The notes: generated by a model not told the origin, from the letters alone. A stretch of DNA of 24,000 nt from Catenibacterium mitsuokai (GCF_025148785.1 NZ_CP102271.1:877569-901568), one strand, 5' to 3'; counted from the first letter of the stretch, positions 5,092-24,000 are shown. Numbers and translations: made by a program.

Positions 5092-6483
5092 TCAATAAAG
5101 TATTTTTTCTAATATTTCTATAGCCTGTGGTAACTTATCTAAATCGATAGAAGAGTAGTTCATAATGAAGGTATGGGATGTATGAGGTATATTCTTAAGA
5201 TAGTAATGAGAAATAGCTCTTAGATGGATTCCTTCTTCTTTTAATTTATTGATAAGTGTTTCATCAGACATATGTGTATGAATCGTGATAAGGAAATGAA
5301 GACCTGCATCTTCCTTGGAAATAGTAATCATATCCTTTAAACTACTTTCTTCTAACATTTTTACAATCGCATCACGCTTATTATGATAATGGTTACGTAA
5401 TTTAGTAATATGCTTATCAAAATAATGTTCATTAATAAATGATGCAAGAGTATATTGTTCGAAGTTAGAGACTGTACAGGCATAAAAAGAGAGCTTCTTA
5501 TTATAGCGTTCTAATAAATGGTGAGGAAGCACCATATAACTAATACGAATTGTAGAGGCAAGAGTCTTAGTAAAAGTATTCATATAAATAACCTTTTCAC
5601 TTAAATCAATACTTTGCAGGGCAGGAATAGGCTGTCCACTTAAACGCAATTCACTGTCATAATCATCTTCTATAATATAGCGATGTTCCTTCTTATTTGC
5701 CCATCCAAGTAATTCATAACGTCGAGATACAGGCATAATAATACCAGTTGGGAAATGATGAGAAGGAGAGATATGCGCAATATCTACATCTAAATCTTCT
5801 AATTGATTGACTAGTATTCCCTGCTCATCCATATCTATAGGAACACATTTTGCTCCCAAACTAGAATAAACATCTAATATTTTATTATAACCAGGATTCT
5901 CTACGGCATAGACAAGATCTAAACCTAATAATTGTACGAGTAGTCCATATAAATATTCAGTTCCTGCACCAATAATAATTCTTTCTGGTTCAACATCCAT
6001 ATTTCTGAATTCTTTTAAATGGTGAGAAATCGCTTCTCTTAATTCATAAATACCACCTACTGGAGGATTAACCATTAGTTCTGATTGGTGTTCATTTAAT
6101 ACGTCCTTCATAAGTTTTGCCCAGGTTGTGAAAGGAAACAAATGGGCTGGTGTCTGATTAGAAGAGAAATCACACCAATAGGATTCTTTCTTAATAGAAG
6201 GTTTATGAATCATCTTGGCAGGAATAAGGGGTGTCTTATTATTAATAGGAGATACATAAAAGCCTTTCTTAGGTAAAGAATAAATATATCCTTCAGCCAT
6301 TAACTGAGCATAAGCATTCTCTATTGTGATAATACTAATACCTAGATTTTTCGCAAATGTACGCTTAGAAGGTAACTTCTCATCTGCTATCAGATGTCCC
6401 TCTAGAATATCATTTTTGATAAATGTATATAATTGCTGGTAGAGAGATTTATGGTTATTTTCATCAAAACTATATGTAAGCAT
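5092..6483 (-). CDS. MocR/PdxR-type regulator: GntR winged-HTH fused to a class I aminotransferase-like (PLP) domain
   Basis: 463 aa. The N-terminal GntR HTH reads LPSKRTFAKNLGISIITIENAYAQLMAEGYIYSLPKKGFYV. It is followed by a roughly 350-aa aminotransferase-fold domain (..NPGY.., ..SFTKTLASTIRISYMV..). Confidence 0.85.
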   Translation of the reverse strand: MLTYSFDENNHKSLYQQLYTFIKNDILEGHLIADEKLPSKRTFAKNLGISIITIENAYAQLMAEGYIYSLPKKGFYVSPINNKTPLIPAKMIHKPSIKKESYWCDFSSNQTPAHLFPFTTWAKLMKDVLNEHQSELMVNPPVGGIYELREAISHHLKEFRNMDVEPERIIIGAGTEYLYGLLVQLLGLDLVYAVENPGYNKILDVYSSLGAKCVPIDMDEQGILVNQLEDLDVDIAHISPSHHFPTGIIMPVSRRYELLGWANKKEHRYIIEDDYDSELRLSGQPIPALQSIDLSEKVIYMNTFTKTLASTIRISYMVLPHHLLERYNKKLSFYACTVSNFEQYTLASFINEHYFDKHITKLRNHYHNKRDAIVKMLEESSLKDMITISKEDAGLHFLITIHTHMSDETLINKLKEEGIHLRAISHYYLKNIPHTSHTFIMNYSSIDLDKLPQAIEILEKILY

Positions 6484-6576
6484 AAATTCATCCTTTCTTT
6501 TCTAACCATTATAGCGTAATCATTTGAAAAAAAGAAGAAAACAGCATAGAATAGTCATATTAATGGAGGATAATCT

Positions 6577-7155
6577 ATGGCGTTAACGGCTAAAAGAATT
6601 ACAGAGAATTTTAAGGAATTAGAAGATCTTAATAATGAAGCATTCCCTAAAGAAGAACGTGTCTCTATTGAGAGAATGATTGATTTATCTCAAACAGGTA
6701 TATCCGATCTTTATGGTGTCTATGATGAAGACACATTTGTTGGTTTCTTTATGACAATGACATCTGCTACATGTGTTTATTTATTCTATCTCGCAATTCG
6801 TTCATCACTTCGTTCTCGTGGGTATGGCGGACGTACTTTAAAGTTGATGGATGATCTCTATCAAAGACAGATTGTGTTGGATATGGAACCTTTAGATGAT
6901 CAAGCAGATAACTATGAACAGCGTTTAAGACGTACTAAGTTTTATGCGAGTCATGGCTACCGTTCTAGCGGGTATCATTTATTCTATTGGAATCAGACAT
7001 TTGATTTATTATGTACAAGAGGTCCTTTCCTAAAAGATGACTTTATTGAGATTACTAAAGAACTTCAAAGAGTTGTGGATGAATCCGGAGAAGGGGACTT
7101 CCATCCAAAGATGTTGAAGGCAGCCTATGATATTCTAGATATTATTGATTTATAA
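6577..7155 (+). CDS. GNAT-family N-acetyltransferase
   Basis: 192 aa. It carries the acetyl-CoA motif-A-like segment LAIRSSLRSRGYGGRTLKLM. It is divergent from the MocR regulator, the usual arrangement for a MocR target gene. Confidence 0.7.
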   Translation: MALTAKRITENFKELEDLNNEAFPKEERVSIERMIDLSQTGISDLYGVYDEDTFVGFFMTMTSATCVYLFYLAIRSSLRSRGYGGRTLKLMDDLYQRQIVLDMEPLDDQADNYEQRLRRTKFYASHGYRSSGYHLFYWNQTFDLLCTRGPFLKDDFIEITKELQRVVDESGEGDFHPKMLKAAYDILDIIDL

Positions 7156-7177
7156 GAACCGAAAGGTTCTTTTTTTC
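7155..7177 (+). terminator. Rho-independent terminator after the GNAT gene
   Basis: AGAACC-GAAA-GGTTCT is followed by a T7 run. Confidence 0.75.
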
Positions 7178-7257
7178 ATTTCCTAACACTTAGGAAGTGA
7201 AATTGAATGCATAAAGCACTGTAAACCATTACAATAAAGGTACAGGAGGTTATACGT

Positions 7258-9132
7258 ATGAATAATAGACAGCAGCGTATTATAGATATCCTTTATGATT
7301 ATGATGAATGGGTGACAGGTAAAGAGCTTGCTTCTATGTTGTCTGTATCAGATCGTACAATCCGTTCTGATATTGAGCATATTAATAAAGAGTATGAATG
7401 TACTCTTATAGAAGCCAATCGTCGTAAAGGTTATCACTTAGACGAGATGCTGACAAGTGTCAAAGGAATTACGACAAAGTCAGTCATTCCTCAGACATCT
7501 CAGGAACGTGTATCTTGGATCATTAAGGAATTATTGTTTAAACAGGAAATCAATCTCATTGAATTACAGGATCGTATTTATGTCAGTGGTTATACGATTG
7601 ATAATGACTTAAGAAATATCAGACGTATACTCAATGAATATCCTTCTTTAAAAGTGGTACGTGTAAAGAACCACATTCGTTTAGAAGGTAATGAAAATGA
7701 GAAGCGTTCTGTATATAAGCATCTATTAGAATCAGAAATCAAAGGAAACTTCACAAATATCAGTGCCTTGTCTCATTTATGGAAGGATTTTAATCTCATT
7801 GATGTGGTAGAAATCTTTAAGAATGTCTGCGCAAATAATCATTATAAGTTCAAGAATGTCAGTCTTCCTATGTTGATGATGCATGCGGGTATTGCGATTG
7901 AACGTATCAGGAATAAGAATTATTTATATGAAACACAGAGTGATTGTACAGGTATTGATTTAGAGTATCGTGTCTCAAAGGATTTCTTTGAAGAATTATC
8001 ACAAAAGTTAGGTATTCCTTATGTTGAAGAAGAAGTCGTTAAGTTTGCTTTCTTATTAGAAGGAAGAGGCAGTCATGTAGACTTAAAAGCAGAATCACAA
8101 CAGTTAGTAGAAGAAGTATTATTAGACATTAAAGATTGTTTTGATATTGATTTTAGAGATGATGAAGAACTTTACAATAGCTTAGTCATTCATATGCAGT
8201 CTTTGCTTGATCGTATTAAAGTAGATAAACCTAATACAACAGCTTATTTAAAGGAGATTAAAAGGCAATATCCTCTAGTCTTTGAAATGGCGATACATGC
8301 CAGCGATGTCATTTCTAAAGCTACAGGTAAACCTTTAGTAGAAGATGAAATCTCTTATCTCGCTTTACATTTTGGAACAGCCTATGAAAGACATATCGAT
8401 ACACAGAAATACCGTGTAGTTATGATTATTCCCCATAATCAGATGCTGGCGAAAGCATGTATGGATAAGATTGAAACACGTTTTAGAGAACGTATGGAAA
8501 TTATTAAAGTATTCCCATTCTTTGAAAATAATATGATTGCATCACTTCATCCTGACTTGATTTTGACTGTTGTACCTTTACAGCATGAATTATCTATTAA
8601 GACAGTATCAATCAGTTTATTTGTGAACTATGAGGATGAAAGTCAGATCTTCCAGGCATTGAATCAATTAGATAGAGAAAAATATCATGATCAGTTCTGT
8701 CATATTGTAAAGAAGCTGATCGGACAGGAAACATTCTTTATAAAAAAAGACATCGCATCTAAGGAAGATGCCATTAACTATTTATGTGACAATCTGATTC
8801 AGTTAGGCTATGCCACACAAGAATATAAAGAAGATGTTTTTAAAAGAGAAGAGATGGCAGGAACAGCCTTTGTGCAGGGCTTTGCGGTACCTCATGCCAT
8901 TACAGTACAGCCATTGCGTTCTACTATATCCGTCATGGTCTTAAAGAATCCCGTTAAGTGGGGTAAGTATGAAGTACGTCTTATTCTCTTATTATCTATT
9001 AGTGAACAGGATAATCAGATGCTGCATACATTTTTTGACTGGTTATCCAATGTACTTATTGATTACAACCAGCTGATGCAGTTTATCGAAGCAGACAATT
9101 ATCAACAATTTATGAAATTAATGACAGCGTGA
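7258..9132 (+). CDS. PRD-domain transcriptional regulator (LicR/CelR/MtlR type: HTH + 2 PRD + EIIB-like + EIIA(Mtl/Fru)-like)
   Basis: 624 aa. It has an N-terminal HTH (WVTGKELASMLSVSDRTIRSDIEHINKEY). The central PRD-like regions contain the conserved histidines (..LMMHAGIAIERI.., ..LVIHMQSLLDRI.., ..ISYLALHFG..). The C-terminal EIIA(Mtl)-type segment reads (..GFAVPHA..). The gene sits directly upstream of a PTS operon. Confidence 0.85.
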   Translation: MNNRQQRIIDILYDYDEWVTGKELASMLSVSDRTIRSDIEHINKEYECTLIEANRRKGYHLDEMLTSVKGITTKSVIPQTSQERVSWIIKELLFKQEINLIELQDRIYVSGYTIDNDLRNIRRILNEYPSLKVVRVKNHIRLEGNENEKRSVYKHLLESEIKGNFTNISALSHLWKDFNLIDVVEIFKNVCANNHYKFKNVSLPMLMMHAGIAIERIRNKNYLYETQSDCTGIDLEYRVSKDFFEELSQKLGIPYVEEEVVKFAFLLEGRGSHVDLKAESQQLVEEVLLDIKDCFDIDFRDDEELYNSLVIHMQSLLDRIKVDKPNTTAYLKEIKRQYPLVFEMAIHASDVISKATGKPLVEDEISYLALHFGTAYERHIDTQKYRVVMIIPHNQMLAKACMDKIETRFRERMEIIKVFPFFENNMIASLHPDLILTVVPLQHELSIKTVSISLFVNYEDESQIFQALNQLDREKYHDQFCHIVKKLIGQETFFIKKDIASKEDAINYLCDNLIQLGYATQEYKEDVFKREEMAGTAFVQGFAVPHAITVQPLRSTISVMVLKNPVKWGKYEVRLILLLSISEQDNQMLHTFFDWLSNVLIDYNQLMQFIEADNYQQFMKLMTA

Positions 9133-12403: not shown

Positions 12404-13357
12404 ATGTACGGTATTATTGCTACTTGGAGAATGGCTTTAGAAGGTATTACAAAAGCAGATGAAATGTTAAAGAATCATGGAGATGCAGGAGATGCAATCG
12501 TTGAAGCTGTTAAGGCTGTAGAAGATTTCCCATATTATAAATCAGTAGGTTATGGGGGATTACCTAACGAAGAAATGATTGTTGAATTAGATGCGGCTTA
12601 TATGAACGGAAATACTCTTTCAGTAGGATGTGTTGGTGCAATCAAAGACTTTGCCAATCCTGTAGAAATCGCAAGAAAATTATCTCATGAAAAGGTCAAC
12701 AACTTCTTAGTTGGTGCAGGTGCTGAAAAGTATGCATCTAAGAATGGTTTTGAAAGAAAGAACATGCTCACTGAACGTGCTGAAATTCATTATCATAATA
12801 GATTAAAAGAAATGACTCAGGAAATTAAACCTTATTCTGGTCATGATACAGTAGGTATGGTCTGCTTAGATGAAAATGCAAAGATGACTTCTGCAACTTC
12901 TACGAGCGGTCTATTTATGAAGCGTTCTGGTAGAGTAGGTGATTCACCTGTATCTGGATCAGGTTTCTATGTTGATAGTGAAGTCGGTGGTGCAAGTGCT
13001 ACAGGACTTGGTGAAGATGTAATGAAGGGCTGTGTCTCTTATGAAATCGTAAGAATGATGAAAGAAGGTATGCACCCACAGGCTGCATGTGAAAAGGCTG
13101 TTAATACATTCTCTAAAGAATTAATCAAACGTCGTGGTGAAGCAGGAGATATGTCTTTAATCGCTATGAATAATAAAGGTGAATGGGGATGTGCCACAAA
13201 TATTGAAGGTTTCTCATTTGTAGTTGCAACTCCAGAACTTGAACCAACTGTATTTGTAGTAAAGCATGAAGGTGAACATAGCGTGTTTGAAAAAGCAAGT
13301 CAGGAATGGCTTGATGATTATATGCGTACAAGAACAGCCCCATTGGTAAGAAAATAA
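12404..13357 (+). CDS. N4-(beta-N-acetylglucosaminyl)-L-asparaginase / isoaspartyl peptidase family (Ntn hydrolase)
   Basis: 317 aa. The autoprocessing and nucleophile site is GHDTVGMVCLD. GRVGDSPVSGSGFY and GLGEDVMK are family motifs. Confidence 0.85.
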   Translation: MYGIIATWRMALEGITKADEMLKNHGDAGDAIVEAVKAVEDFPYYKSVGYGGLPNEEMIVELDAAYMNGNTLSVGCVGAIKDFANPVEIARKLSHEKVNNFLVGAGAEKYASKNGFERKNMLTERAEIHYHNRLKEMTQEIKPYSGHDTVGMVCLDENAKMTSATSTSGLFMKRSGRVGDSPVSGSGFYVDSEVGGASATGLGEDVMKGCVSYEIVRMMKEGMHPQAACEKAVNTFSKELIKRRGEAGDMSLIAMNNKGEWGCATNIEGFSFVVATPELEPTVFVVKHEGEHSVFEKASQEWLDDYMRTRTAPLVRK

Positions 13358-15188: not shown

Positions 15189-15555
15189 AAGATATATTAT
15201 TACTTTCTTTGCGGTGTTCTTTTCGGCACTCTTACAGACATTTGTTCTTCAGACGTTTTTGAATCCTTCTGACCTTTTATCAAGTGGTTTTACCGGTATT
15301 GCGATTTTAATTAATCGTATCAGCATGCTTTATGGATATTCATTATCTATTTCCACGCTTGTGATTGTACTGAATCTACCTGTCGCAATTGTATGTTATA
15401 AGACAATAGGTAAGAAATTTGTTTTCTTCTCTTTCTTACAAGTTATCTTCTTCAGTATTTTCACAAGGGTATTATCATTTGATCCATTATTTGATGATGT
15501 GATCTTGAATGTCTGTTTTGGTGGATTTCTTTATGGCTTTGCGATTGCGATGTGA
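15151..15555 (+). pseudogene. YitT-family membrane protein gene, 5' fragment truncated by transposon insertion
   Basis: From the ATG at 15151: MSKNLSAAYKTNKRYIITFF...LLSSGFTGIAILINRI...VLNLPVAIVCYKTIGKKFVFFSFLQ...CFGGFLYGFAIAM*. This matches the first ~134 aa of YitT proteins, which are normally ~280 aa. The reading frame stops at a TGA that belongs to the TGTGA transposon terminus. The upstream extension in the track (15058) overlaps cutC and is rejected. Confidence 0.8.
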
Positions 15556-15700
15556 TTTTCCCGTTGAATTGTTCCGTTCGTTGATTTGTTCCGTTCAGAT
15601 AGGATATTTTCCCTTTGATTACTTCCGTTCGTGATTTTAATTAGTTCCGTTCGTGGATTTAATTAGTTCCGTTCGCGAAATTTGATTAGTTCCGTTCGGA
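15551..15700 (+). repeat. Transposon end: TGT terminus plus an array of putative TnsB-binding sites
   Basis: It starts TGTGATTTTCCCGTTG. Exact TTCCGTTCG copies lie at 15572, 15623, 15645, 15667 and 15690, and the last four are on a 22-23 bp register as ATTAGTTCCGTTCG. A TTCCGTTCA variant lies at 15589, and degenerate copies lie at 15558 and 15609. All are in the same orientation. Confidence 0.8.
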
Positions 15701-15750: not shown

Positions 15751-15936
15751 ATGTATAAATCAAAACGCAGCCTCAAAGTGTACAAGGCACCACTTGGTTT
15801 AAATAGTAAACAGCAGATTCCAAGAATTCAGCTTCAGGGCCGGTGACTCGAAGCACTTGGATATCACGTGGGCGATAAAGTTGATGTTCAGTGTACTGGT
15901 GACATGATCATCATCAATAAAATGAAGACTATATAA
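15751..15936 (+). pseudogene. symE: SymE-family (AbrB-fold) type I toxin homolog interrupted by an in-frame TGA
   Basis: GGAGGAAACA RBS. Translation gives MYKSKRSLKVYKAPLGLNSKQQIPRIQLQGR*LEALGYHVGDKVDVQCTGDMIIINKMKTI. It matches the SymE core IPxIxLxGxWLExxGFxxGxxVxV, with the TGA (15844-15846) exactly where the conserved Trp (TGG) is expected. Confidence 0.7.
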
Positions 15937-16124: not shown

Positions 16125-17078
16125 ATGGATAAACTGATTGATATTAACGCGTATCCCGTAAAGGATACCTTGAAGATTCTTCTTCAAGATAAATCAACGA
16201 AAAAGAACATTATCTGGGCTACAGACATTTATAGCGAATATGGTCCAGGATTCAACGATAAGAACCAAATTAAGCAGTCGTTGTTTAATGGAACGAATGC
16301 GTTTAAGCTGCGCCCTCGTATTAGCAAGACTTTTGAGGAACAGCAAGAACGCACCCGCAAGAAGGCTGAGGTTATGACGCCCGTGTGGCTTTGCAATAAA
16401 ATGAACAATTACGCTGATGAGCAGTGGTTTGGACGTAAAGATGTCTTTAATCATGAGAACAACGACAATACATGGACTGTCAATGAAGAAAAGATAGTTT
16501 TTGATGGAAAACGTACATGGAAGAAATACGTGGACTCCCGTAGACTTGAAATTACATGTGGAGAGGCCCCGTATCTTGTCTCACGTTATGATACAACAAC
16601 AGGTGAGTTGATTGTACCGCCAATCAATAGAATCGGATTTTTAGACCGTAAACTACGTGTTGTGAATGAAAATACAATCACCGAAGAAGAATGGCTTAAA
16701 TGGGCTGAGCGAGCAATACAAAGCTGTTACGGTTATGAGTACCAGGGTGACAATCTCTTGATTGCCCGTATCAATGTACTTTTATCATTCTACGAATATT
16801 TTATAGAGCGTTGGAAACATGATCCCAATATGAAGATATTGACGCGTATAGCGAACATTATCAGTTGGAATATCTGGCAGATGGATGGTTTGAAAGACAC
16901 AGTTCCACTAGGAAAACCATACGAGGAGAATCATCAATTAACATTATTTGAACTCCTTGAATTTGAAGATGAAACAACACAATCAGCAGAAACAATAGAA
17001 GAGGCTGTTCCGTGTAAGATTTATGATTGGCGTGCTAACACATCAATGTTATTTAAAGATTGTAAGAAAAGAGGTTAA
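16125..17078 (+). CDS. N-terminal (AdoMet-binding) half of a gamma-class, TaqI/Eco57I-like N6-adenine DNA methyltransferase
   Basis: 317 aa, GGGGAG RBS. It has a motif X-like AEVMTPVWLCNKM (nt 16365-16406) and a motif I-like RLEITCGEAPYL (nt 16542-16580; compare M.TaqI LEPACAHGPFL). It has a motif II/III-like YGYEYQGDNLLIARINVLL (nt 16725-16784). No NPPY motif is present in this ORF. Confidence 0.6.
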   Translation: MDKLIDINAYPVKDTLKILLQDKSTKKNIIWATDIYSEYGPGFNDKNQIKQSLFNGTNAFKLRPRISKTFEEQQERTRKKAEVMTPVWLCNKMNNYADEQWFGRKDVFNHENNDNTWTVNEEKIVFDGKRTWKKYVDSRRLEITCGEAPYLVSRYDTTTGELIVPPINRIGFLDRKLRVVNENTITEEEWLKWAERAIQSCYGYEYQGDNLLIARINVLLSFYEYFIERWKHDPNMKILTRIANIISWNIWQMDGLKDTVPLGKPYEENHQLTLFELLEFEDETTQSAETIEEAVPCKIYDWRANTSMLFKDCKKRG

Positions 17079-17084
17079 AAGAGT

Positions 17085-18113
17085 ATGAGTAAAAAATTAT
17101 TTGATTTTTGCATTGGAAATCCACCTTATCAGCAAGAATCTAATGGAGCTAACGATAATAGTACCCCTATTTATCACAATTTCTTAGAAGCTGCATTTTC
17201 GATTAGTAAGAAAGTTGAAATGATTCATCCGGCTAGATTCTTGTTTAATGCCGGTGGAACGCCAAAAGCATGGAACGAAAAAATGTTAAATGACGAGCAT
17301 TTTAAAGTATTACGTTATGAGGAGGATGCTACGAAAGTTTTTGCCAATACGGATATCAAGGGTGGTGTCGCAATAACTTATCGCGATTGTGATACTATTT
17401 ATAAAGCAATTGGTGTATTTACAAAATACCCTGAATTAAATTCTATTAGACAAAAAGTGTGGGAGAAAACAACAGACAGCTTATGTACGGTAATAACAAA
17501 TCGTGGAATTTATCGTTATTCAGATATGGTATACAAAGTTCATCCAGAGGAAATGAAAAAAACAGCTGATAGACGAATTGCTCCGAGTTGTTTCGAGCGT
17601 ATGCCAACCTTATTTACAGAAGAAAAACCTATAGATGATAAAGAATATATACAAATTCTAGGGGTGAATAAAAGTAACCGTTTTTATAAGTGGTTTAGAA
17701 AAGATTTTGTGAAAGATGTAGATAATTTGAAAAAATATAAAGTTTTGGTACCAAAAGCGAGTGGTTCGGGGGCATTTGGGGAAACGTTAAGTAATCCGTT
17801 AGTAGTAGGCCCGATGGTTGGATTTACAGAAACTTTTATTTCGATAGGAGCTTGCGATAATGAGCAGGATGCTAACGCGACATTGAGGTATGTTAAAACT
17901 AAATTTTTACGTACTTTGCTTTCAATTTTAAAGGTTACACAAAATAATGCAAAACCAACATGGGCATATGTTCCTATCCAGGACTTTACATCTAAGTCTG
18001 ATATCGACTGGTCTAAATCTATTCATGACATTGATTTACAGCTTTATAGAAAGTATGGGTTAAGCGCTGAAGAAGTTGCATTTATCGAAACTAATGTAAA
18101 GGAGATGGAATAA
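17085..18113 (+). CDS. Catalytic (NPPY) and putative target-recognition half of an Eco57I-type N6-adenine DNA methyltransferase
   Basis: 342 aa. It starts MSKKLFDFCIGNPPYQ, with motif IV NPPY at nt 17118-17129. The C-terminal tail IDWSKSIHDIDLQLYRKYGLSAEEVAFIE is typical of Eco57I-family methylases. It is in the same reading frame as the upstream ORF, separated by one TAA and two codons. Confidence 0.8.
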   Translation: MSKKLFDFCIGNPPYQQESNGANDNSTPIYHNFLEAAFSISKKVEMIHPARFLFNAGGTPKAWNEKMLNDEHFKVLRYEEDATKVFANTDIKGGVAITYRDCDTIYKAIGVFTKYPELNSIRQKVWEKTTDSLCTVITNRGIYRYSDMVYKVHPEEMKKTADRRIAPSCFERMPTLFTEEKPIDDKEYIQILGVNKSNRFYKWFRKDFVKDVDNLKKYKVLVPKASGSGAFGETLSNPLVVGPMVGFTETFISIGACDNEQDANATLRYVKTKFLRTLLSILKVTQNNAKPTWAYVPIQDFTSKSDIDWSKSIHDIDLQLYRKYGLSAEEVAFIETNVKEME

Positions 18114-18114
18114 T

Positions 18115-21100
18115 ATGGCACCTAAAATTACTATTCAAACCACAAAAAAAGTTGTGCCAATTATTTATTGCTACACAACTCCTGAAATTGCCCGTCATAA
18201 CGGTTGGGTAAAAATTGGTTATTCAGAACAAGATGCTGAGAAACGTATCGGTCAGCAAACACATACAGCAGATATTGAATATCATATTGAATGGTCGAAA
18301 AATGCAACATTCGATGATGGATCTGGGGAACTTTTTAAAGACTCAGACTTCCACGCATATCTTGTGAAATGTGGTATTAAACGTCAGAAAGGTACAGAAT
18401 GGTTCCAAATTAGTCCTACTGAGGCTAAATCTAAACTTGATGAATTTCGTGAGAATAGAGGTATTAAGAAGGCTGACAGTGTTATTCCATACCGACTTCG
18501 TAATGAACAAAATGAAGCTGTTGAACGTGCACAAGATTATTTCACACTTCATGAACGTGGCGAATTTCTTTATAATGCAAAACCTCGTTTTGGAAAAACT
18601 TTAACGGTATATGACCTTGCTAAGAGAATGTGTCTTGAAAAGGTTCTTATTGTTACGAATCGTCCTGCTATTGCTAACAGTTGGTATGAAGATTACTGCA
18701 AGTTCCTCGGTGCGGAATCCGGGTTTTCATTTGTTAGTGAAGTAGACGCATTAAAAACACAACCACATGTGTTATCAAGAAAACAATATACAGACGAGTT
18801 GATTAAAGGAAATGTTGGAGAAAATTGTATTGAATTTGTTTCTCTACAAGATTTGAAAGGCTCTGTGTACTTTGGTGGACACTTCAATAAGCTTGAAGAA
18901 GTAGCCCATATGGAATGGGATATGCTTGTTATTGATGAAGCCCATGAAGGTGTTGATACATATAAAACAGATATTGCGTTTGACCATATTAAGAGAAAAC
19001 ATACATTGCACCTTTCTGGTACACCATTTAAAGCTCTTGCAAACGAGAAGTTCCCGGCAAACGCTATTTATAACTGGACTTATGCTGATGAACAAAGGGC
19101 AAAAGCAAACTGGAAATCAGTAGATGGTGATCCGAACCCTTATGAGAATCTGCCTCAGCTGAATATGTACACATATCAGATGAGTGAAATTATTCGAGAA
19201 GAACTTAGTCAAGGTGTGGAAGTGAATGGTGAAACTGAAGAATATGCATTTGATTTAAATGAGTTCTTTGCAACAAATGAACGTGGATTCTTTGTCCATA
19301 ACAGTTCAGTAGATAGATTCTTAGATGCTATGACAATGCAGACTAAGTTCCCATTCTCTACTCCGGAGCTTAGAGATGAATTAAAACACACATTATGGCT
19401 TCTTAACCGTGTAGATAGTGCAAAGGCACTAGCTAAGAAACTTGAAAAACACCCTGTATTTAAGGATTATAAAGTAGTTCTTGCCGCAGGTGATGGACGT
19501 CTGGATGAAGAAGACGAGGTGTTAAAATCCTTCGACAAGGTAAAAGATGCTATCGAAACTTATGATAAAACGATTACGCTTTCTGTAGGTCAGTTAACGA
19601 CTGGTGTAACTATTCCAGAATGGACTGCAGTAATGATGCTTTCTAGCATCAAGAGCCCTGGATTATATATGCAGGCAGCGTTTAGAGCACAAAATCCTTG
19701 TTTGTTCTCAAACGGTAGTGAATTCTTCCGTAAGAAAGATGCTTACGTATTTGACTTTGACCCAGCAAGAACATTGATTATCTTTGAAGCATTTGCTAAT
19801 GACTTGTCTTCTAGTACTTCTGGTGGAAAAGGAGATACAGGCACTCGTGAAGACCATGTACGAGAATTATTGAATTTCTTCCCTGTAATCGGAGAAGATG
19901 AAGATGGCGAAATGATTGCATTAGATGCAGCTAAAGTATTGTCTATCCCAAGAAAAATCAAATCAAAAGAAGTGGTCCGCAGAGGATTTATGAGCGACTT
20001 CCTGTTCCAGAATATCAGCAATGTATTCCGTGCGCCTCAGGCTGTTATTGATATGATTCAGCAAATGGATCCAGCAAAAGATCCAGGACCGCTTGCGGGA
20101 GTTACCCCTTCTACAGGTAAGGAATTGGATATCAATAAAGATGGCGAAGTTGAATTACCAGATGAAATGGTTATTGGAGAAGCAACAGAGCTTTTTGGAG
20201 AGAAGATTTTTGATAATGTTGATGTACATGATACTTTAAACGATATCATCGAATCCACTCCGGATAAGCCTCTAACAAAAACAGATATTGAAGCACAGAA
20301 ACAGCTTGAACAGTTGAAAAAAGCTTTTAAAGAACAGGTTACTAAGCCTATTATGGATACAGCAACACAGAAATATGGAGATGACATGTCATCTCATGCT
20401 GCGAAAAAGATTGAAAACAAGATCAATACAGTGGCGGAGTCTACTCTTGAATATGAATTCGGTAGCTATCAGGTAGAACAAAAAGCCCTTGAAGCAGACA
20501 GACAAAATGAGATTGCTGCGGCAACATCTGAAGAAGAAGTTATTGAAATCAATAACACCTTCGATAAGAAGCAAAAAGAGGCTTCTGAGGCTTTTAAAGA
20601 ACGAATGGGTAAAACTATCGACACTATGGTAAAAGACGCTGGAGAGACCGTTGTACGTGATGTGGAGACTGAAAAGAAGGAAAAGACTAAACGTACTATT
20701 GAAGATTCAATTAAAGACCATTTACGTGGCTTCTCACGAACTATTCCGTCATTCTTAATGGCATATGGTGATGATGATACCACGCTTGAGACGTTCGATC
20801 AGATTATTCCGGACCAGGTATTCGTTGATGTGACGAGCATCACCCTTGAACAGTTTAGATTCCTTCGCGATGGCGGTGATTACCCGGATGAGGAAACTGG
20901 AGCAACAGAGCACTTTGAGGGGCATCTGTTTGATCCAATTGTATTTAATGACTCTGTGAAAGAATTCCTTGGTCTTAAGGTTAAACTTGCGGATTACTTT
21001 GATGTAGCTAATGAAGAAGATATCTTTGATTACATTCCACCACAAAAGACGAACCAAATCTTCACACCTAAGCCTACGGTGAAGGACATGGTTGACCGTC

Positions 21101-21465
21101 TTGAAGGAGAAAACCCTGGTTGCTTTGATGATCCTGATAAAACATTTGTTGACCTTTATATGAAGTCTGGTATGTATGTTACAGAAATTGTGAAACGTCT
21201 GTATCAGAGTGATCGTATGAAAGCTCTATATCCAGACAGAAAAGAGCGTTTGAATCATATCTTCGCTGAACAGGTATATGGCCTTGCTCCAACAGAGATT
21301 ATTTATAGAATCTGTTTGGCGTACATCATGGGATTCAGTGACGAAATTACGATTAAAAAACATAATATCAGGCTTTGTGATGCGCTAGAATACGCTAAAA
21401 ACGGTACTCTTGAAGAGAAGCTAGAGGAATTATTTCCAGAACTTGCAAACAAGGAGGGATGCTAA
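18115..21465 (+). CDS. T5orf172/GIY-YIG-like nuclease domain + SF2 (type III Res-like, DEAH) helicase + charged linker + C-terminal methylase-N-half-like domain
   Basis: 1116 aa, AAGGAG RBS. The N-terminus (aa ~14-110) reads IIYCYTTPEIARHNGWVKIGYSEQDAEKRI...DFHAYL...GTEWF (T5orf172 pattern). Helicase motifs are AKPRFGKT (motif I, nt 18577-18600), VIDEAHEG (II, nt 18928-18951), SGTP (III), QLTTGVTIPEW (V) and QAAFRAQNP (VI, nt 19672-19698). The C-terminus has QIFTPKPTVKDMV, FVDLYMKSGMYV and VYGLAPTEIIYRICLAYIMG. Confidence 0.8.
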   Translation: MAPKITIQTTKKVVPIIYCYTTPEIARHNGWVKIGYSEQDAEKRIGQQTHTADIEYHIEWSKNATFDDGSGELFKDSDFHAYLVKCGIKRQKGTEWFQISPTEAKSKLDEFRENRGIKKADSVIPYRLRNEQNEAVERAQDYFTLHERGEFLYNAKPRFGKTLTVYDLAKRMCLEKVLIVTNRPAIANSWYEDYCKFLGAESGFSFVSEVDALKTQPHVLSRKQYTDELIKGNVGENCIEFVSLQDLKGSVYFGGHFNKLEEVAHMEWDMLVIDEAHEGVDTYKTDIAFDHIKRKHTLHLSGTPFKALANEKFPANAIYNWTYADEQRAKANWKSVDGDPNPYENLPQLNMYTYQMSEIIREELSQGVEVNGETEEYAFDLNEFFATNERGFFVHNSSVDRFLDAMTMQTKFPFSTPELRDELKHTLWLLNRVDSAKALAKKLEKHPVFKDYKVVLAAGDGRLDEEDEVLKSFDKVKDAIETYDKTITLSVGQLTTGVTIPEWTAVMMLSSIKSPGLYMQAAFRAQNPCLFSNGSEFFRKKDAYVFDFDPARTLIIFEAFANDLSSSTSGGKGDTGTREDHVRELLNFFPVIGEDEDGEMIALDAAKVLSIPRKIKSKEVVRRGFMSDFLFQNISNVFRAPQAVIDMIQQMDPAKDPGPLAGVTPSTGKELDINKDGEVELPDEMVIGEATELFGEKIFDNVDVHDTLNDIIESTPDKPLTKTDIEAQKQLEQLKKAFKEQVTKPIMDTATQKYGDDMSSHAAKKIENKINTVAESTLEYEFGSYQVEQKALEADRQNEIAAATSEEEVIEINNTFDKKQKEASEAFKERMGKTIDTMVKDAGETVVRDVETEKKEKTKRTIEDSIKDHLRGFSRTIPSFLMAYGDDDTTLETFDQIIPDQVFVDVTSITLEQFRFLRDGGDYPDEETGATEHFEGHLFDPIVFNDSVKEFLGLKVKLADYFDVANEEDIFDYIPPQKTNQIFTPKPTVKDMVDRLEGENPGCFDDPDKTFVDLYMKSGMYVTEIVKRLYQSDRMKALYPDRKERLNHIFAEQVYGLAPTEIIYRICLAYIMGFSDEITIKKHNIRLCDALEYAKNGTLEEKLEELFPELANKEGC

Positions 21466-21650
21466 TGCCAAGACAGAAAAAAGACGCTAAGATTTTAAAT
21501 ATTAAGTTGGCAAAAGAGATTAGTGACCAGCTGGAACAATTTTGCGAAGAATCAGGAATATCTAAAACTGTAGCGACAGAAAAAATTCTATCGAAGTATT
21601 TTGAGGAATATTTCAGTAGACCAGAAGAAGAGCGTACACTTTTCAAATAA
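21465..21650 (+). CDS. Ribbon-helix-helix (CopG/Arc-like) DNA-binding protein
   Basis: 61 aa from the ATG at 21465. This start overlaps the helicase TAA stop as TAATG and lies 6 nt after AAGGAGGG. The beta-strand/helix/helix pattern is KILNIKLAKEISDQLEQFCEESGISKTVATEKILSKYFEEYF. Confidence 0.65.
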   Translation: MPRQKKDAKILNIKLAKEISDQLEQFCEESGISKTVATEKILSKYFEEYFSRPEEERTLFK

Positions 21651-21664
21651 GAATATTAAAAAAT

Positions 21665-21699
21665 GCCCACAGGCCAAATAAGCTTGTGGGTATTTTTAT
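21665..21699 (+). terminator. Rho-independent terminator closing the four-gene module
   Basis: GCCCACAGG-loop-CTTGTGGGT is followed by ATTTTTAT. Confidence 0.7.
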
Positions 21700-21916: not shown

Positions 21917-22378
21917 ATGGAGAAAATTGAATTCACAAACCCGGAGAGCAAGGAACTTAACGAAGAAGTAAGGAACTACCTTGAATTGATGAGGGATACG
22001 GAAGCCCTTATTGGTGACGGGATGGAGAAGCTGAAAGGGGCCAATTGGGCAAAGCTTTGGAACAGCCTTGACAAATTGGTTTTTTATCCGAAAACATACG
22101 AAGGGAATTTGGCTATTTTCAAAACTCGATGCGACATCCGATACATAAGCTTATTTACGAAACCGGAATTTTGCTGTGATCAGGAAGCAGACTTTAAGTT
22201 GGGCGGCATCCTTAGATCATGGCTTGATGATGGTCAGAAACGTGGCTATTCGCTTCTTATTAACACGACCATCAATGAATATTGGGGACATGGCATTTTT
22301 ATCGATCCGGATACAGGGCATATTGCGCCTGTGATGACGGATTATGATGCGGAGCACCGTACTTATACATTATATTGA
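21917..22378 (+). CDS. Hypothetical protein, no recognisable domain
   Basis: 153 aa with a strong AAGGAGG RBS. G+C and codon choice resemble the tnsA block. The 3' end overlaps the convergent recombinase-like gene by 16 nt. Confidence 0.5.
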   Translation: MEKIEFTNPESKELNEEVRNYLELMRDTEALIGDGMEKLKGANWAKLWNSLDKLVFYPKTYEGNLAIFKTRCDIRYISLFTKPEFCCDQEADFKLGGILRSWLDDGQKRGYSLLINTTINEYWGHGIFIDPDTGHIAPVMTDYDAEHRTYTLY

Positions 22379-23037
22379 TCAGCATCGATCTCGCCCGAAT
22401 CTGGGAACATTTTCCTGTATTCATCAACTAATTTTCGAAATATGTAACGAGTAATGGGTTTATTATCCGGAAGCTTACCTGCCAATAATTTCATCGCTTG
22501 GCGTTCAGTGATCTTGTGCAGGCAATATTGTTCTATGACATCAAATTCTTTTCGCTGTAAGCTCATTAGTGATATACGACGTTTCGGTCTTCCAGAAGCT
22601 TTCCTGTGACCAGGAAGCTGCTCGATAGGCTGCGCCTGACGATAGTTATGGATTTGGCTAAGTGTTCCGGATAATAGCTCATGGTCGTGGGTATCATCTT
22701 TGTCGTCATATTCAAGCGATGGGATTCGCAGGTGGATCTGTTTGTCTTGAAGGAGTTTTAGTGTTTTTTGTATTTTGGGCAAGGTGCCGCCAAGTACATA
22801 GATATTTGCTACATATAACGTATCGCCACTTTGAATAGGGCGACGTGGTGAAATATCGCCCTTAAATGTGTCGCTGTCCGAATAGACAGAACGAGCCACG
22901 TCGCAACATTTTATGTAGAAGTAGTTGTGTTCTGAGCCGAGCCAGTGGGTTGTATCTGGCAAATGTTTGCGTGCTATTTCGTATTGTTCGTTTATATTTT
23001 CGATTCGCGTATTACGAAACAGCCACCACTCGCTCAT
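22363..23037 (-). CDS. Serine-recombinase (resolvase/invertase)-like protein lacking catalytic residues, with a C-terminal HTH
   Basis: 224 aa from the ATG at 23037 (GAGGAGG RBS). The track start at 23055 has no RBS. It aligns by eye to gamma-delta resolvase: WLFRNTRIENINEQ against LFGYARVSTSQQ (Ser10 position is Glu, Tyr6 position is Asn). GDTLYVANIYVLGG aligns against GDVILVKKLDRLGR (the D67/R68/R71 positions are Y/V/G). The C-terminal part reads SGRPKRRIS...ITERQAMKLL. Confidence 0.6.
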   Translation of the reverse strand: MSEWWLFRNTRIENINEQYEIARKHLPDTTHWLGSEHNYFYIKCCDVARSVYSDSDTFKGDISPRRPIQSGDTLYVANIYVLGGTLPKIQKTLKLLQDKQIHLRIPSLEYDDKDDTHDHELLSGTLSQIHNYRQAQPIEQLPGHRKASGRPKRRISLMSLQRKEFDVIEQYCLHKITERQAMKLLAGKLPDNKPITRYIFRKLVDEYRKMFPDSGEIDADQYNV

Positions 23038-23295
23038 GGCACAGCCTCCTCTCATTTGTAATGGTTACTGGTACTAACCAACACATTATATCATATTATT
23101 TAAAAATGATGTCCGAAAATTAGAAGTTTCAAAAAAATAAAATAAAACCGTATAAATGCGGTAATTGCAGATAAATTCTTGTCTGAAAATTGTTTGAAAA
23201 AGGTCGTTTATTTGTATGTGAAAATAAAAGCACATGAGAAATCAAGCATATTAATTGCGAAGGCGAAAACAAAAATAAACAGGAAGGAGAAATAA

Positions 23296-24000
23296 TTGAA
23301 ATCACATAAACGAAAAATCGAAGAAGGACGTTGTCAGGGATACGGAAAAGACTATACCCCATTTATTCTGGTCAGAGAATATAAGGGGCGGGGTACAGCA
23401 TCAGTCATCTGGGATCCCTTTGAAGAAAGATTGATCCACTGCCTGTCGCAGACAGAAGTTGCGGTGTATGAAACAATCCGCTGGCAGGACAATGTGGAAC
23501 ATATCCGCGAACAATATCTTTTAGATACAGATAGGATGAATGCCATTGCAGAAGAACTTGGGATGAAGAAAGCTCCATGGTGGACCACGGATTTTCTGGT
23601 AGATTACGATGATGGAAGCAAGACGGCGTTCTCAGTCAAATACGACAGAAGCGCATTTGATCCGAATAAACGTACCTACCGTGGAAAAGAATCAAGGCTG
23701 CACAATCTGGTAATGCGTCAGAGAGCAGAACAGATCTATTGGGAATCTCAGAAAGTGAGGTTTAAGCTGGTAACGAACGAAGATATTAATCAGGTGCTTG
23801 TGTGGAATGTAAAAAGCGTCATGAGCTATTACGAATCATTTAAGGTGATCAGCAAAGAACAGAAACTGAAATATCTGATTGCACATAAATATGTATATAT
23901 TCCGATGGATAAACAGATTTTGGATTTCCATGAGATTGTAGAGCGTGCTGGTTTCGACATTGATGAGCTGTATAAGCGAGTATTAGTGGCACGTGACCTT
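23296..24000 (+). CDS. tnsA: Tn7-type transposase endonuclease subunit TnsA (partial; continues past the window end)
   Basis: TTG start preceded by an AGGAAGGAGA RBS, with an in-frame TAA immediately upstream. Translation gives KRKIEEGRCQGYGKDYTPFILVRE...IHCLSQTEVAVYETIRWQDNVEHIREQY...WWTTDFLVDYDDGSKTAFSVK. This closely parallels Tn7 TnsA (RRIKEGRGQGHGKDYIPWLTVQE...HLLSDLELAVFLSLEW...IREQF...STDFLVD...QVK), including the E/D/K catalytic positions. It is absent from the ORF track because it is open-ended. Confidence 0.9.
   Translation, partial: MKSHKRKIEEGRCQGYGKDYTPFILVREYKGRGTASVIWDPFEERLIHCLSQTEVAVYETIRWQDNVEHIREQYLLDTDRMNAIAEELGMKKAPWWTTDFLVDYDDGSKTAFSVKYDRSAFDPNKRTYRGKESRLHNLVMRQRAEQIYWESQKVRFKLVTNEDINQVLVWNVKSVMSYYESFKVISKEQKLKYLIAHKYVYIPMDKQILDFHEIVERAGFDIDELYKRVLVARDL

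Follow-up and report, generated by a model that had tools for sequence, protein, structure and literature searches.

In the Type ISP restriction enzymes LlaGI and LlaBIII, an N-terminal nuclease of the Mrr/PD-(D/E)xK kind, a superfamily 2 (SF2) motor, a helical coupler, a gamma-class N6-adenine methylase and a target-recognition domain (TRD) follow one another in a single chain; such enzymes hemimethylate an asymmetric site and cut where two translocating enzymes collide head-on. In Type III systems (Mod/Res, e.g., EcoP15I) the methylase and specificity part, the beta-class methylase Mod, is separate from the helicase-nuclease subunit Res, which relies on it to recognise sites and has a PD-(D/E)xK nuclease at its C-terminus. 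Characterised Type IIG enzymes are again single chains with a PD-(D/E)xK nuclease, and have no ATPase motor. Morgan et al. predicted in 2009 (PMC2731913) restriction systems that combine a methylase with a helicase and a GIY-YIG nuclease, and the DnmA(YeeA)-YeeB-YeeC trios bring together an N6-adenine methylase with TRD, an SF2 helicase and a T5orf172 protein in a conserved operon on horizontally acquired DNA; a trio of this type is cited in PMC9973331 as partly protective in Vibrio crassostreae. Here we describe a module of four genes, g1 to g4, in a stretch of 24,000 nucleotides of the Catenibacterium mitsuokai DSM 15897 genome (NZ_CP102271.1:877569-901568, hereafter the window), the first three of which form a conserved unit that is probably an ATP-dependent, methylation-based restriction-modification system of the Type ISP/Type III kind, split into three proteins. 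Its general architecture was predicted in 2009 and pieces of it already bear the automatic labels MTase_II and REase_MTase_IIG; what is unusual is that its methylase comes in three parts, the N-half being duplicated and the catalytic/TRD subunit exchangeable. We found no description of the g1-g3 family in the literature.

The four genes are intact, same-strand open reading frames (ORFs) at positions 16125-21650 of the window (Table 1). A first-pass annotation, made from the sequence alone, had proposed a compact four-gene module closed by one terminator, and its coordinates, junctions and terminator were borne out by the ORF listing and by RNA folding. The spacer between g1 and g2 measures 6 nt (17079-17084) and that between g2 and g3 a single nucleotide (18114), while g3 and g4 overlap in a TAATG stop/start, given a g4 start at the ATG at 21465. 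The ORF listing offered an alternative ATG at 21459, which abuts a Shine-Dalgarno sequence (aaggaggg, 21451-21458). Because the spacing of this sequence is right for the ATG at 21465, and because a start there yields a protein of 61 aa, in line with the 60-61 aa of the g4 homologues, the true extent of g4 is most likely 21465-21650. The terminator hairpin was absent from a simple consensus terminator scan and was found by folding (-22.8 kcal/mol, z = -5.67, equalled by 0 of 200 shuffles). In the DSM 15897 annotation, g1 to g4 are called, in order, 'hypothetical', 'Eco57I...', 'type III restriction enzyme res subunit / DEAD box helicase' and 'hypothetical', and none of the NCBIfam profiles matched g1, g2 or g3.

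The first two genes encode the N- and C-halves of one gamma-class N6-adenine methylase. g1 is without any Pfam match and matches the PADLOC profile PDLC03390 ('MTase_II') over its full length (1e-104); behind an N-terminal extension it has motif X, a deviant motif I and motifs II and III, and motif IV is missing from it. g2 opens with FDFCIGNPPYQ, which corresponds to strand beta-4 and motif IV, and has motifs IV-VIII and the remainder of the enzyme. It scores 57.7 bits with the Pfam Eco57I profile (PF07669; cutoff 25.3), of which positions 72-171 alone are covered, and it further matches PDLC03375 and PDLC03626. The Eco57I profile is covered in full only in fused relatives, where it spans the joint. 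In a Clostridia metagenome-assembled genome (locus L004), a single protein of 657 aa matches g1 (55% identity) and g2 (45%) collinearly, and the joint between the two falls two residues ahead of the g2 start. The AlphaFold2 (AF2) model of a fused homologue, P0214 (predicted local distance difference test, pLDDT, 78), matches DrdV, PglX/BrxX, Type I HsdM and M.TaqI. When the g1 family was aligned by hhalign to a 230-aa plasmid protein with a canonical N6_Mtase N-half (97.3%, E 1.8e-11), the motifs were paired as EVMTP/EVFTP, LEITCGEAPYL/LEPAAGDGNFL, YGYEY/YGIEF and NIWQMDGL/NIVRGNTL. These motif alignments, the fused homologues and the model matches place the cut between beta-3 and beta-4. The split N6-adenine methylase of the first-pass annotation thus stands, on the Eco57I score, the 22 loci with fused genes (see below) and the hhalign result.

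In the third protein, g3, a putative T5orf172 nuclease domain is followed by an SF2 motor of the double-stranded DNA translocase type, then by a helical coupler and finally by another methylase N-half. Its N-terminal domain scores 25.7 bits with T5orf172 (PF10544; gathering cutoff 20) and also matches MUG113; the motor scores 50 bits with ResIII and weakly with Helicase_C, and no PD-(D/E)xK family is among the Pfam matches of g3. The putative GIY-YIG-type residues Y18, K33, G35, R44, H80 and E95 are invariant across 53 g3 homologues, as are Walker A, DEAH, SGTP, motif VI and the C-terminal motif block. The C-terminal half carries NQIFTP, DLYMKSGMY, VYGLAPTE and NIRLCDAL and lacks motif IV, the chain ending ~25 residues past motif III. 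It aligns to the canonical N6_Mtase N-half (hhalign 87%, E 4e-6), and in a plasmid relative in which g3 and g2 are fused (L086) the full Pfam Eco57I profile runs across the g3-like/g2-like junction. The fusion of T5orf172 to a helicase with a C-terminal methylase-like half, which had also been read from the sequence, is confirmed by these profile matches. The best PDB matches of the AF2 model of g3 (pLDDT 68) in Foldseek were the Type ISP enzymes LlaBIII (E 3.7e-10, 1060-1082 aligned columns) and LlaGI, followed at lower rank by EcoR124I HsdR, Snf2/ISWI, XPB and SauUSI. When g1, g2, g3 and the g3 C-terminus were compared with PDB sequences, as single sequences and as profiles, the only matches were weak ones of the motor to UvrB/XPD. 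Column identity across g3 is 0.6-0.86 except in the coupler (0.13-0.45), and the second methylase half, at 0.68-0.82, is among its most conserved parts. The coupler, the sole poorly conserved part of g3, is predicted to form very long helices (724-884). Since g1 and the g3 C-terminus gave no significant BLASTP match and are paired by hhalign at the FTP motif alone (4.9% probability), the two N-halves are not recent duplicates.

The g3 family is very large, and three database searches each returned more than 8000 clusters at 90% identity. At E <= 1e-30, g3 matched 811 representatives of 50% identity clusters, and the protein lengths among the best 150 of these 811 included both ~1100 aa and ~1300-1560 aa. 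A scan of reference genomes yielded 80 loci, mostly at 57-70% identity, spanning Bacillota, Actinomycetota, Bacteroidota, Spirochaetota, Alphaproteobacteria, Planctomycetota and Melainabacteria-like bacteria as well as methanogenic/methylotrophic archaea, including Methanocorpusculum and Methanomethylophilaceae. Upstream of g3, g1 and g2 were split in 38 of the 80 loci, fused into a protein of ~650 aa in 22, and both there with one of them broken or partial in nine; the upstream DNA was missing in the other 11, and no locus (0/80) had upstream DNA available and g1 or g2 absent. Homologues of both genes therefore lay directly upstream of the g3 homologue in 69 of 69 loci with enough upstream DNA, an association that is not due to chance. 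As g4 was found in 8 of the 80 loci only, the conserved unit is the trio and not the quartet, and of the neighbourhood conservation expected for all four genes only that of g1-g3 held. g4 is nevertheless there in every close relative, and its ribbon-helix-helix (RHH) character, though detectable, is marginal (Pfam RepB-RCR_reg 21.1 bits against a cutoff of 21.0; PHROGs Arc-like repressor, E 7e-4); the gene is probably an accessory regulator.

A different layout was found on plasmids of Lactiplantibacillus, Pediococcus, Enterococcus, Lactococcus and others, where a small protein comprising an N-half only is followed by a g3-g2 fusion of 1417-1455 aa (46-47% identical to g3 and 29-48% to g2). 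The small protein is g1-like in L085 (38% identity), and its counterparts in L086 and L091, of 230-248 aa, are canonical N6_Mtase N-halves that stop after motif III; the small subunits of the plasmid relatives have the canonical motif I LEPAAGDGNFL. The fusion partner of g2 thus varies with the lineage, being either g1 or g3 (the latter in L085/L086), and two N-halves with one C-half are found in every layout. These alternative fusions of g2 argue that the three proteins work in one complex. The first-pass annotation had noticed neither them nor the variability of g2 described below. Copies of g3 with at least 90% identity occur in Catenibacterium, Holdemanella, Peptostreptococcus anaerobius and Pseudobutyrivibrio and, together with the cross-phylum range, point to very recent horizontal spread in gut communities.

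On the Enterococcus faecium plasmid pAT02-a (L086, 2369-10332) and on many other Enterococcus plasmids, the fused version, made up of the small N-half protein and a 1445-aa protein, is found immediately downstream of optrA, which confers oxazolidinone/phenicol resistance. In other relatives accessory genes are wedged among the core genes (L007 7357-8001, L017 5360-6940, L057 6910-7980, L055 6450-6821) or inserted between g1 and g2 (L049, L052, L079). They include a stand-alone 214-aa T5orf172-like protein, DUF1016-like, XRE helix-turn-helix, toxin-antitoxin-like and DUF559-like genes, and a pair that, by sequence inspection, resembles a nucleotidyltransferase/HEPN (MNT/HEPN) module. Accessory genes embedded within Type I systems have also been reported (PMC9881135).

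Among the three subunits, g2 behaves like a specificity subunit that is exchanged as a cassette. Its column conservation is 0.37-0.57 at the N-terminus and 0.47-0.62 at the C-terminus and falls to 0.21-0.30 in residues 100-220. In four pairs of loci with nearly identical g3 and g1, the middle region of g2 was essentially unrelated: L026 and L027 share 99% identity in g3, 97% in g1 and 14% in the g2 middle region, and the corresponding values are 98%, 96% and 11% for L036 and L054, 96%, 97% and 9% for L042 and L060, and 95%, 94% and 8% for L023 and L031. The ends of g2 had diverged too in these pairs. Across all pairs, g3 divergence correlates with that of g1 (r = 0.75) and not with that of g2 (r = 0.1-0.2), a pattern that resembles HsdS/TRD exchange and suggests that g2 is the swapped specificity part. 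One locus, L078, has two tandem g2 genes (5838-6866 and 6976-8004) that are 94% identical, with differences concentrated in residues 224-310, and may hold either two specificities or a recent duplication. Apart from this tandem duplicate and the inserted accessory genes, we found no features of programmed inversion or of a shufflon around g2.

Having established the composition of the module, we compared it with the systems described above. The order of motor, coupler, gamma-class N6-adenine methylase and TRD that defines Type ISP enzymes downstream of their nuclease was recovered here by Foldseek (~1050-1080 columns to LlaBIII/LlaGI), by the order of motifs and in the fused relatives, and the plasmid relatives carry g3 and g2 as a single polypeptide of ~1420-1455 aa, as a Type ISP enzyme would. 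However, no sequence similarity to LlaBIII was detectable, the window holds three separate genes in place of a single chain, and even the plasmid fusions remain paired with a separate small subunit. Moreover, the N-terminal nuclease is T5orf172/GIY-YIG-like and not of the Mrr/PD-(D/E)xK kind, the methylase is cut ahead of motif IV so that its catalytic/TRD part has a gene of its own, and an extra N-half, g1, is always there. With DnmA-YeeB-YeeC the module shares its three activities, its conserved operon and its setting in horizontally acquired DNA; yet DnmA is a complete MmeI-family methylase accompanied by separate helicase and T5orf172 proteins, whereas here the latter two are fused and the methylase is of the Eco57I type, split and with its N-half duplicated. 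In agreement, neither g1 nor g2 has any MmeI Pfam domain; the distinction from YeeB and YeeC is one of description, not of sequence comparison. The likeness to Type III, under which NCBI formerly named g3 ('type III restriction enzyme, res subunit'), lies in the separation of a methylase/specificity part from a helicase-nuclease subunit dependent on it, and is offset by the gamma-class motif order X-I-II-III-IV, the split methylase and the N-terminal position of T5orf172.

The Type IIG/IIL group (Eco57I, MmeI, DrdV) is resembled in the Eco57I-family part of g2 and in the match of the fused g1-g2 model to DrdV, but the module has an SF2 motor with invariant Walker A and DEAH motifs, which characterised Type IIG enzymes do not. 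g1, g2 and part of g3 match the REBASE-derived PADLOC profiles PDLC03390, PDLC03375 and PDLC03626, the REase_MTase_IIG label falling on g2 (1.3e-32) and on a 90-residue stretch of g3 (1.9e-12); the 'IIG' in PDLC03626 is an automatic class name and not a characterised enzyme of the g1-g3 layout. The remaining PADLOC match among the module proteins was a weak one to PDC-S57 (E 0.0027), and no signature protein of a named PADLOC v2 defence system (BREX, DISARM, Gao_RL/MANTIS, Hma, Druantia, others) was matched. Identity with MANTIS/Gao_RL, BREX, DISARM or Hma was rejected on these profiles and on the type of nuclease, MANTIS/Gao_RL having a phospholipase D (PLD) nuclease where T5orf172 is found here. 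To summarize, the distinct architecture proposed by the first-pass annotation holds in that the module falls outside canonical Types I, III, ISP and IIG, and has to be tempered in that it stands near known kinds, with LlaBIII as its best match and plasmid polypeptides in Type ISP order; likewise, the module belongs to no named defence system, but its pieces had been labelled before.

The module is the cargo of a complete Tn7-like element inserted in yitT, as had been suggested; a 5-bp target-site duplication, a TGT terminus, six end repeats and TnsA, AAA_22 and TniQ genes bear this out. The host yitT is interrupted and ends at 15555, where the YitT_membrane profile has reached position 113 of 205. 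The end repeat (T)AGTTCCGTTCG has seven matches in the window against 0.78 expected, of which the seventh, at 12603, is unrelated. By gene order in L093-L095, the tnsA-like gene is followed by genes for a 750-760-aa protein, AAA_22 and TniQ, and the whole element, ~14.8 kb, is seen in L094 (7441-22281), which reads near end, SymE-like ORF, g1-g4, two small ORFs, TnsA-like, 750-aa protein, AAA_22, TniQ and far end. By inspection, the far end consists of an imperfect inverted terminus, the same TGCGA and then the rest of yitT. The 750-aa protein, which has no Pfam match on record, is a TnsB candidate. The tnsA, 750-aa, AAA_22 and TniQ genes all point to the far end, and the space from the six-repeat end up to tnsA is taken by the cargo; this arrangement differs from that of canonical Tn7. 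The g3 protein was found on at least 17 contigs, with the same g1-g4 order in all five places shown. A close copy of the quartet in Negativicoccus lies within an integrase/Toprim/MobA element, and a 95%-identical copy (L087) in a chromosomal island without mobility genes, between murE-like and miaB/mutS genes. The module is therefore real, conserved and highly mobile, being carried by a Tn7-like transposon, integrative elements, plasmids and bare chromosomal islands.

Three further ORFs accompany the module within the element. Just inside the transposon end lies a SymE-toxin-like ORF with an in-frame TGA (15844-15846) at the family's conserved Trp (…LQGR*LEALGYHVG…); with W substituted it passes the Pfam SymE_toxin profile (43 bits, cutoff 29). 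Either this ORF is a pseudogene or its stop codon is read through. In the interval from the module to tnsA, a 153-aa ORF has no family match and a 230-aa ORF on the opposite strand weakly resembles a resolvase N-terminal domain (E 0.019). Both follow g4 in the element's own copies (L093-L097), and L087 has a different gene there.

Table 1. Features of the module and its carrier, in coordinates of the window
Feature	Position (nt)	Strand	Residues or length	Remarks
g1, methylase N-half subunit	16125..17078	+	317 aa	N-terminal extension
g1 motif X			82-86	EVMTP
g1 motif I			141-151	LEITCGEAPYL, deviant
g1 motif II				YGYEY
g1 motif III			249-256	NIWQMDGL
g2, methylase C-half and putative target-recognition cassette	17085..18113	+	342 aa	
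g2 motif IV	17118-17129	+	12-15	NPPY
g2 variable middle region	17382-17804	+	~100-240	
g3, nuclease-motor subunit	18115..21465	+	1116 aa	
g3 T5orf172/GIY-YIG-like domain	18160-18441	+	16-109	
g3 SF2 motor	18493-20034	+	~127-640	GKT 160-162, DEAH 274-277
g3 helical coupler	20182-20766	+	~690-884	poorly conserved stretch given as ~640-860 (20033-20694)
g3 second methylase N-half	21037-21399	+	~975-1095	
g4, small RHH/Arc-like protein	21465..21650	+	61 aa	most likely extent
Intrinsic terminator hairpin, then U-run	21659..21697	+		ends operon; RNA folding
Near end of Tn7-like element	15546..15698	+		target-site duplication, terminus, six repeats
Target-site duplication	15546-15550		5 bp	TGCGA
Terminus	starts 15551			TGTGATTTTCCC
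Six end repeats	15569-15698			(T)AGTTCCGTTCG
SymE-toxin-like ORF	15751-15936	+		in-frame TGA
Cargo ORF	21917-22378	+	153 aa	
Cargo ORF	22363-23055	-	230 aa	
tnsA-like gene, start	23296..24000, running off the window	+		Pfam Tn7_TnsA-like_N, 41.4 bits

If the module is a restriction-modification system, as we consider likely, its parts would be expected to act as follows; the methylation and restriction activities, the pairing of the halves with g2 in each state and the mechanism of cleavage are what we infer from the composition of the proteins. g2, with the catalytic half from the NPPY of motif IV onward and the variable target-recognition region, would set the DNA sequence that is read, and g1 would provide the half that binds S-adenosylmethionine (AdoMet; motifs X and I-III), such that the two together would mark host DNA by methylating an asymmetric site. 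The deviant second AdoMet-binding half of g3 would serve as a docking site for g2, and the signal of an unmethylated site would reach g3 through the contact of this half-methylase with g2 or with g1-g2. g3 would then translocate at the expense of ATP and cut with its T5orf172 domain, and g4 would be an optional RHH regulator. The assignment of cleavage to T5orf172 is consistent with its listing among the restriction nuclease domains of N6-adenine systems by Iyer et al. 2015 (PMC4738411) and with the nuclease activity demonstrated for the phage ICP1 protein Odn (PMC8263062). More tentatively, and rather doubtfully at present, a single exchangeable g2 might alternately complete the half-methylases of both g1 and g3, g2 with g1 forming the active, self-marking methyltransferase and g2 with the g3 half a reader of methylation state wired to the translocase and the GIY-YIG-type nuclease. 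Such alternation would account for the two N-halves and one C-half in all layouts and for the swapping of g2 alone.

Several observations weigh against this restriction-modification scheme or parts of it. In B. subtilis, the analogous trio DnmA-YeeB-YeeC conferred neither restriction nor defence against phages (PMC9973331). Motif I is deviant in both N-halves (CGEAP in g1, KSG in g3), and AdoMet binding by the two is for this reason only putative; searches with the g1 and g3 C-terminus profiles retrieve no methylase from the PDB, and the two profiles align to each other at the FTP motif alone. The g3 model is of moderate quality, its pLDDT being below 50 through much of RecA2. The fused layouts leave one N-half without a covalent C-half, and a shared g2 therefore needs domain exchange or a higher-order complex. 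Finally, T5orf172 could be solely a DNA-binding domain.

Of the other explanations, a possible one, though we do not favor it, is a Type III-like Mod/Res system in which g1 and g2 are the sole methylase and the g3 half is a dead docking relic that binds Mod and is never completed by g2. By inspection, the g3 half is without the acidic residue that closes beta-2 (VYGLAPTE) and carries a K in its glycine loop (DLYMKSG), as would suit such a relic, and the covalent fusion of g1 to g2 in 22 of the 80 loci and the canonical motif I in the small subunits of the plasmid relatives are in keeping with it. The same plasmid relatives, however, join g2 covalently to the g3 half, with the full Eco57I profile aligning across the junction, and still keep the small N-half protein; the conservation of the g3 half also goes beyond what a passive relic needs.

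It is unlikely that the module acts by exclusion in the manner of BREX or DISARM, with methylation marking self and the motor blocking the replication of unmethylated DNA without sequence-dependent double-strand cleavage. The fused g1-g2 model does match PglX/BrxX as well as DrdV, and cleavage in vitro has been hard to show for several methylation-based systems, e.g., MANTIS (bioRxiv 10.64898/2026.09.23.753747); but the PADLOC profiles of BREX, DISARM, Gao_RL and Hma match none of the four proteins, the overall fold is closest to the cleaving Type ISP and Type I motors, and the nuclease-type domain is conserved.

Less probable still is a module that serves the mobile element itself, as an orphan or anti-restriction methylase with a helicase that protects or establishes transferred DNA. 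Large methylase-helicase proteins of conjugative elements, and DarB of phage P1, have been proposed to act in this way, and the module is nearly always on or near mobile elements (Tn7-like, integrase/MobA, plasmids; in L004, ArdC is nearby). Defence systems are themselves typical cargo of mobile elements, however, and such a role would explain neither the invariance of the putative nuclease residues, nor the hypervariable swapped cassette, which is a signature of restriction specificity diversification, nor the copy in a chromosomal island without mobility genes. That the module is an inactive relic, kept only for an epigenetic methylase as in B. subtilis dnmA-yeeB-yeeC, for which the broken g1 or g2 in nine of the 80 relatives and the precedent in PMC9973331 could be cited, is highly improbable given that all four ORFs of the window are intact, that the g3 sequence recurs across contigs in an unchanged gene order, and that g3 is at least 90% identical in several genera with its motifs invariant across phyla.

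The g1-g3 family is very common in gut and dairy bacteria, extends across phyla and to methanogens, and is annotated just as 'helicase', 'Eco57I domain' or 'hypothetical'. If active as the restriction-modification system that we favor, it would be a major, as yet uncharacterised obstacle to the movement of phages and plasmids in the gut and during food fermentation, and would extend the ATP-dependent restriction enzymes to a GIY-YIG-type nuclease. Were a single g2 to complete both half-methylases in turn, restriction and modification would share their specificity by split-domain complementation, a principle of coupling that has not been described for Types I, II, III or ISP. As a natural three-piece methylase whose specificity module appears to be swapped in the wild, the module may also be useful for learning how restriction and modification are kept matched and for the engineering of programmable methylases.

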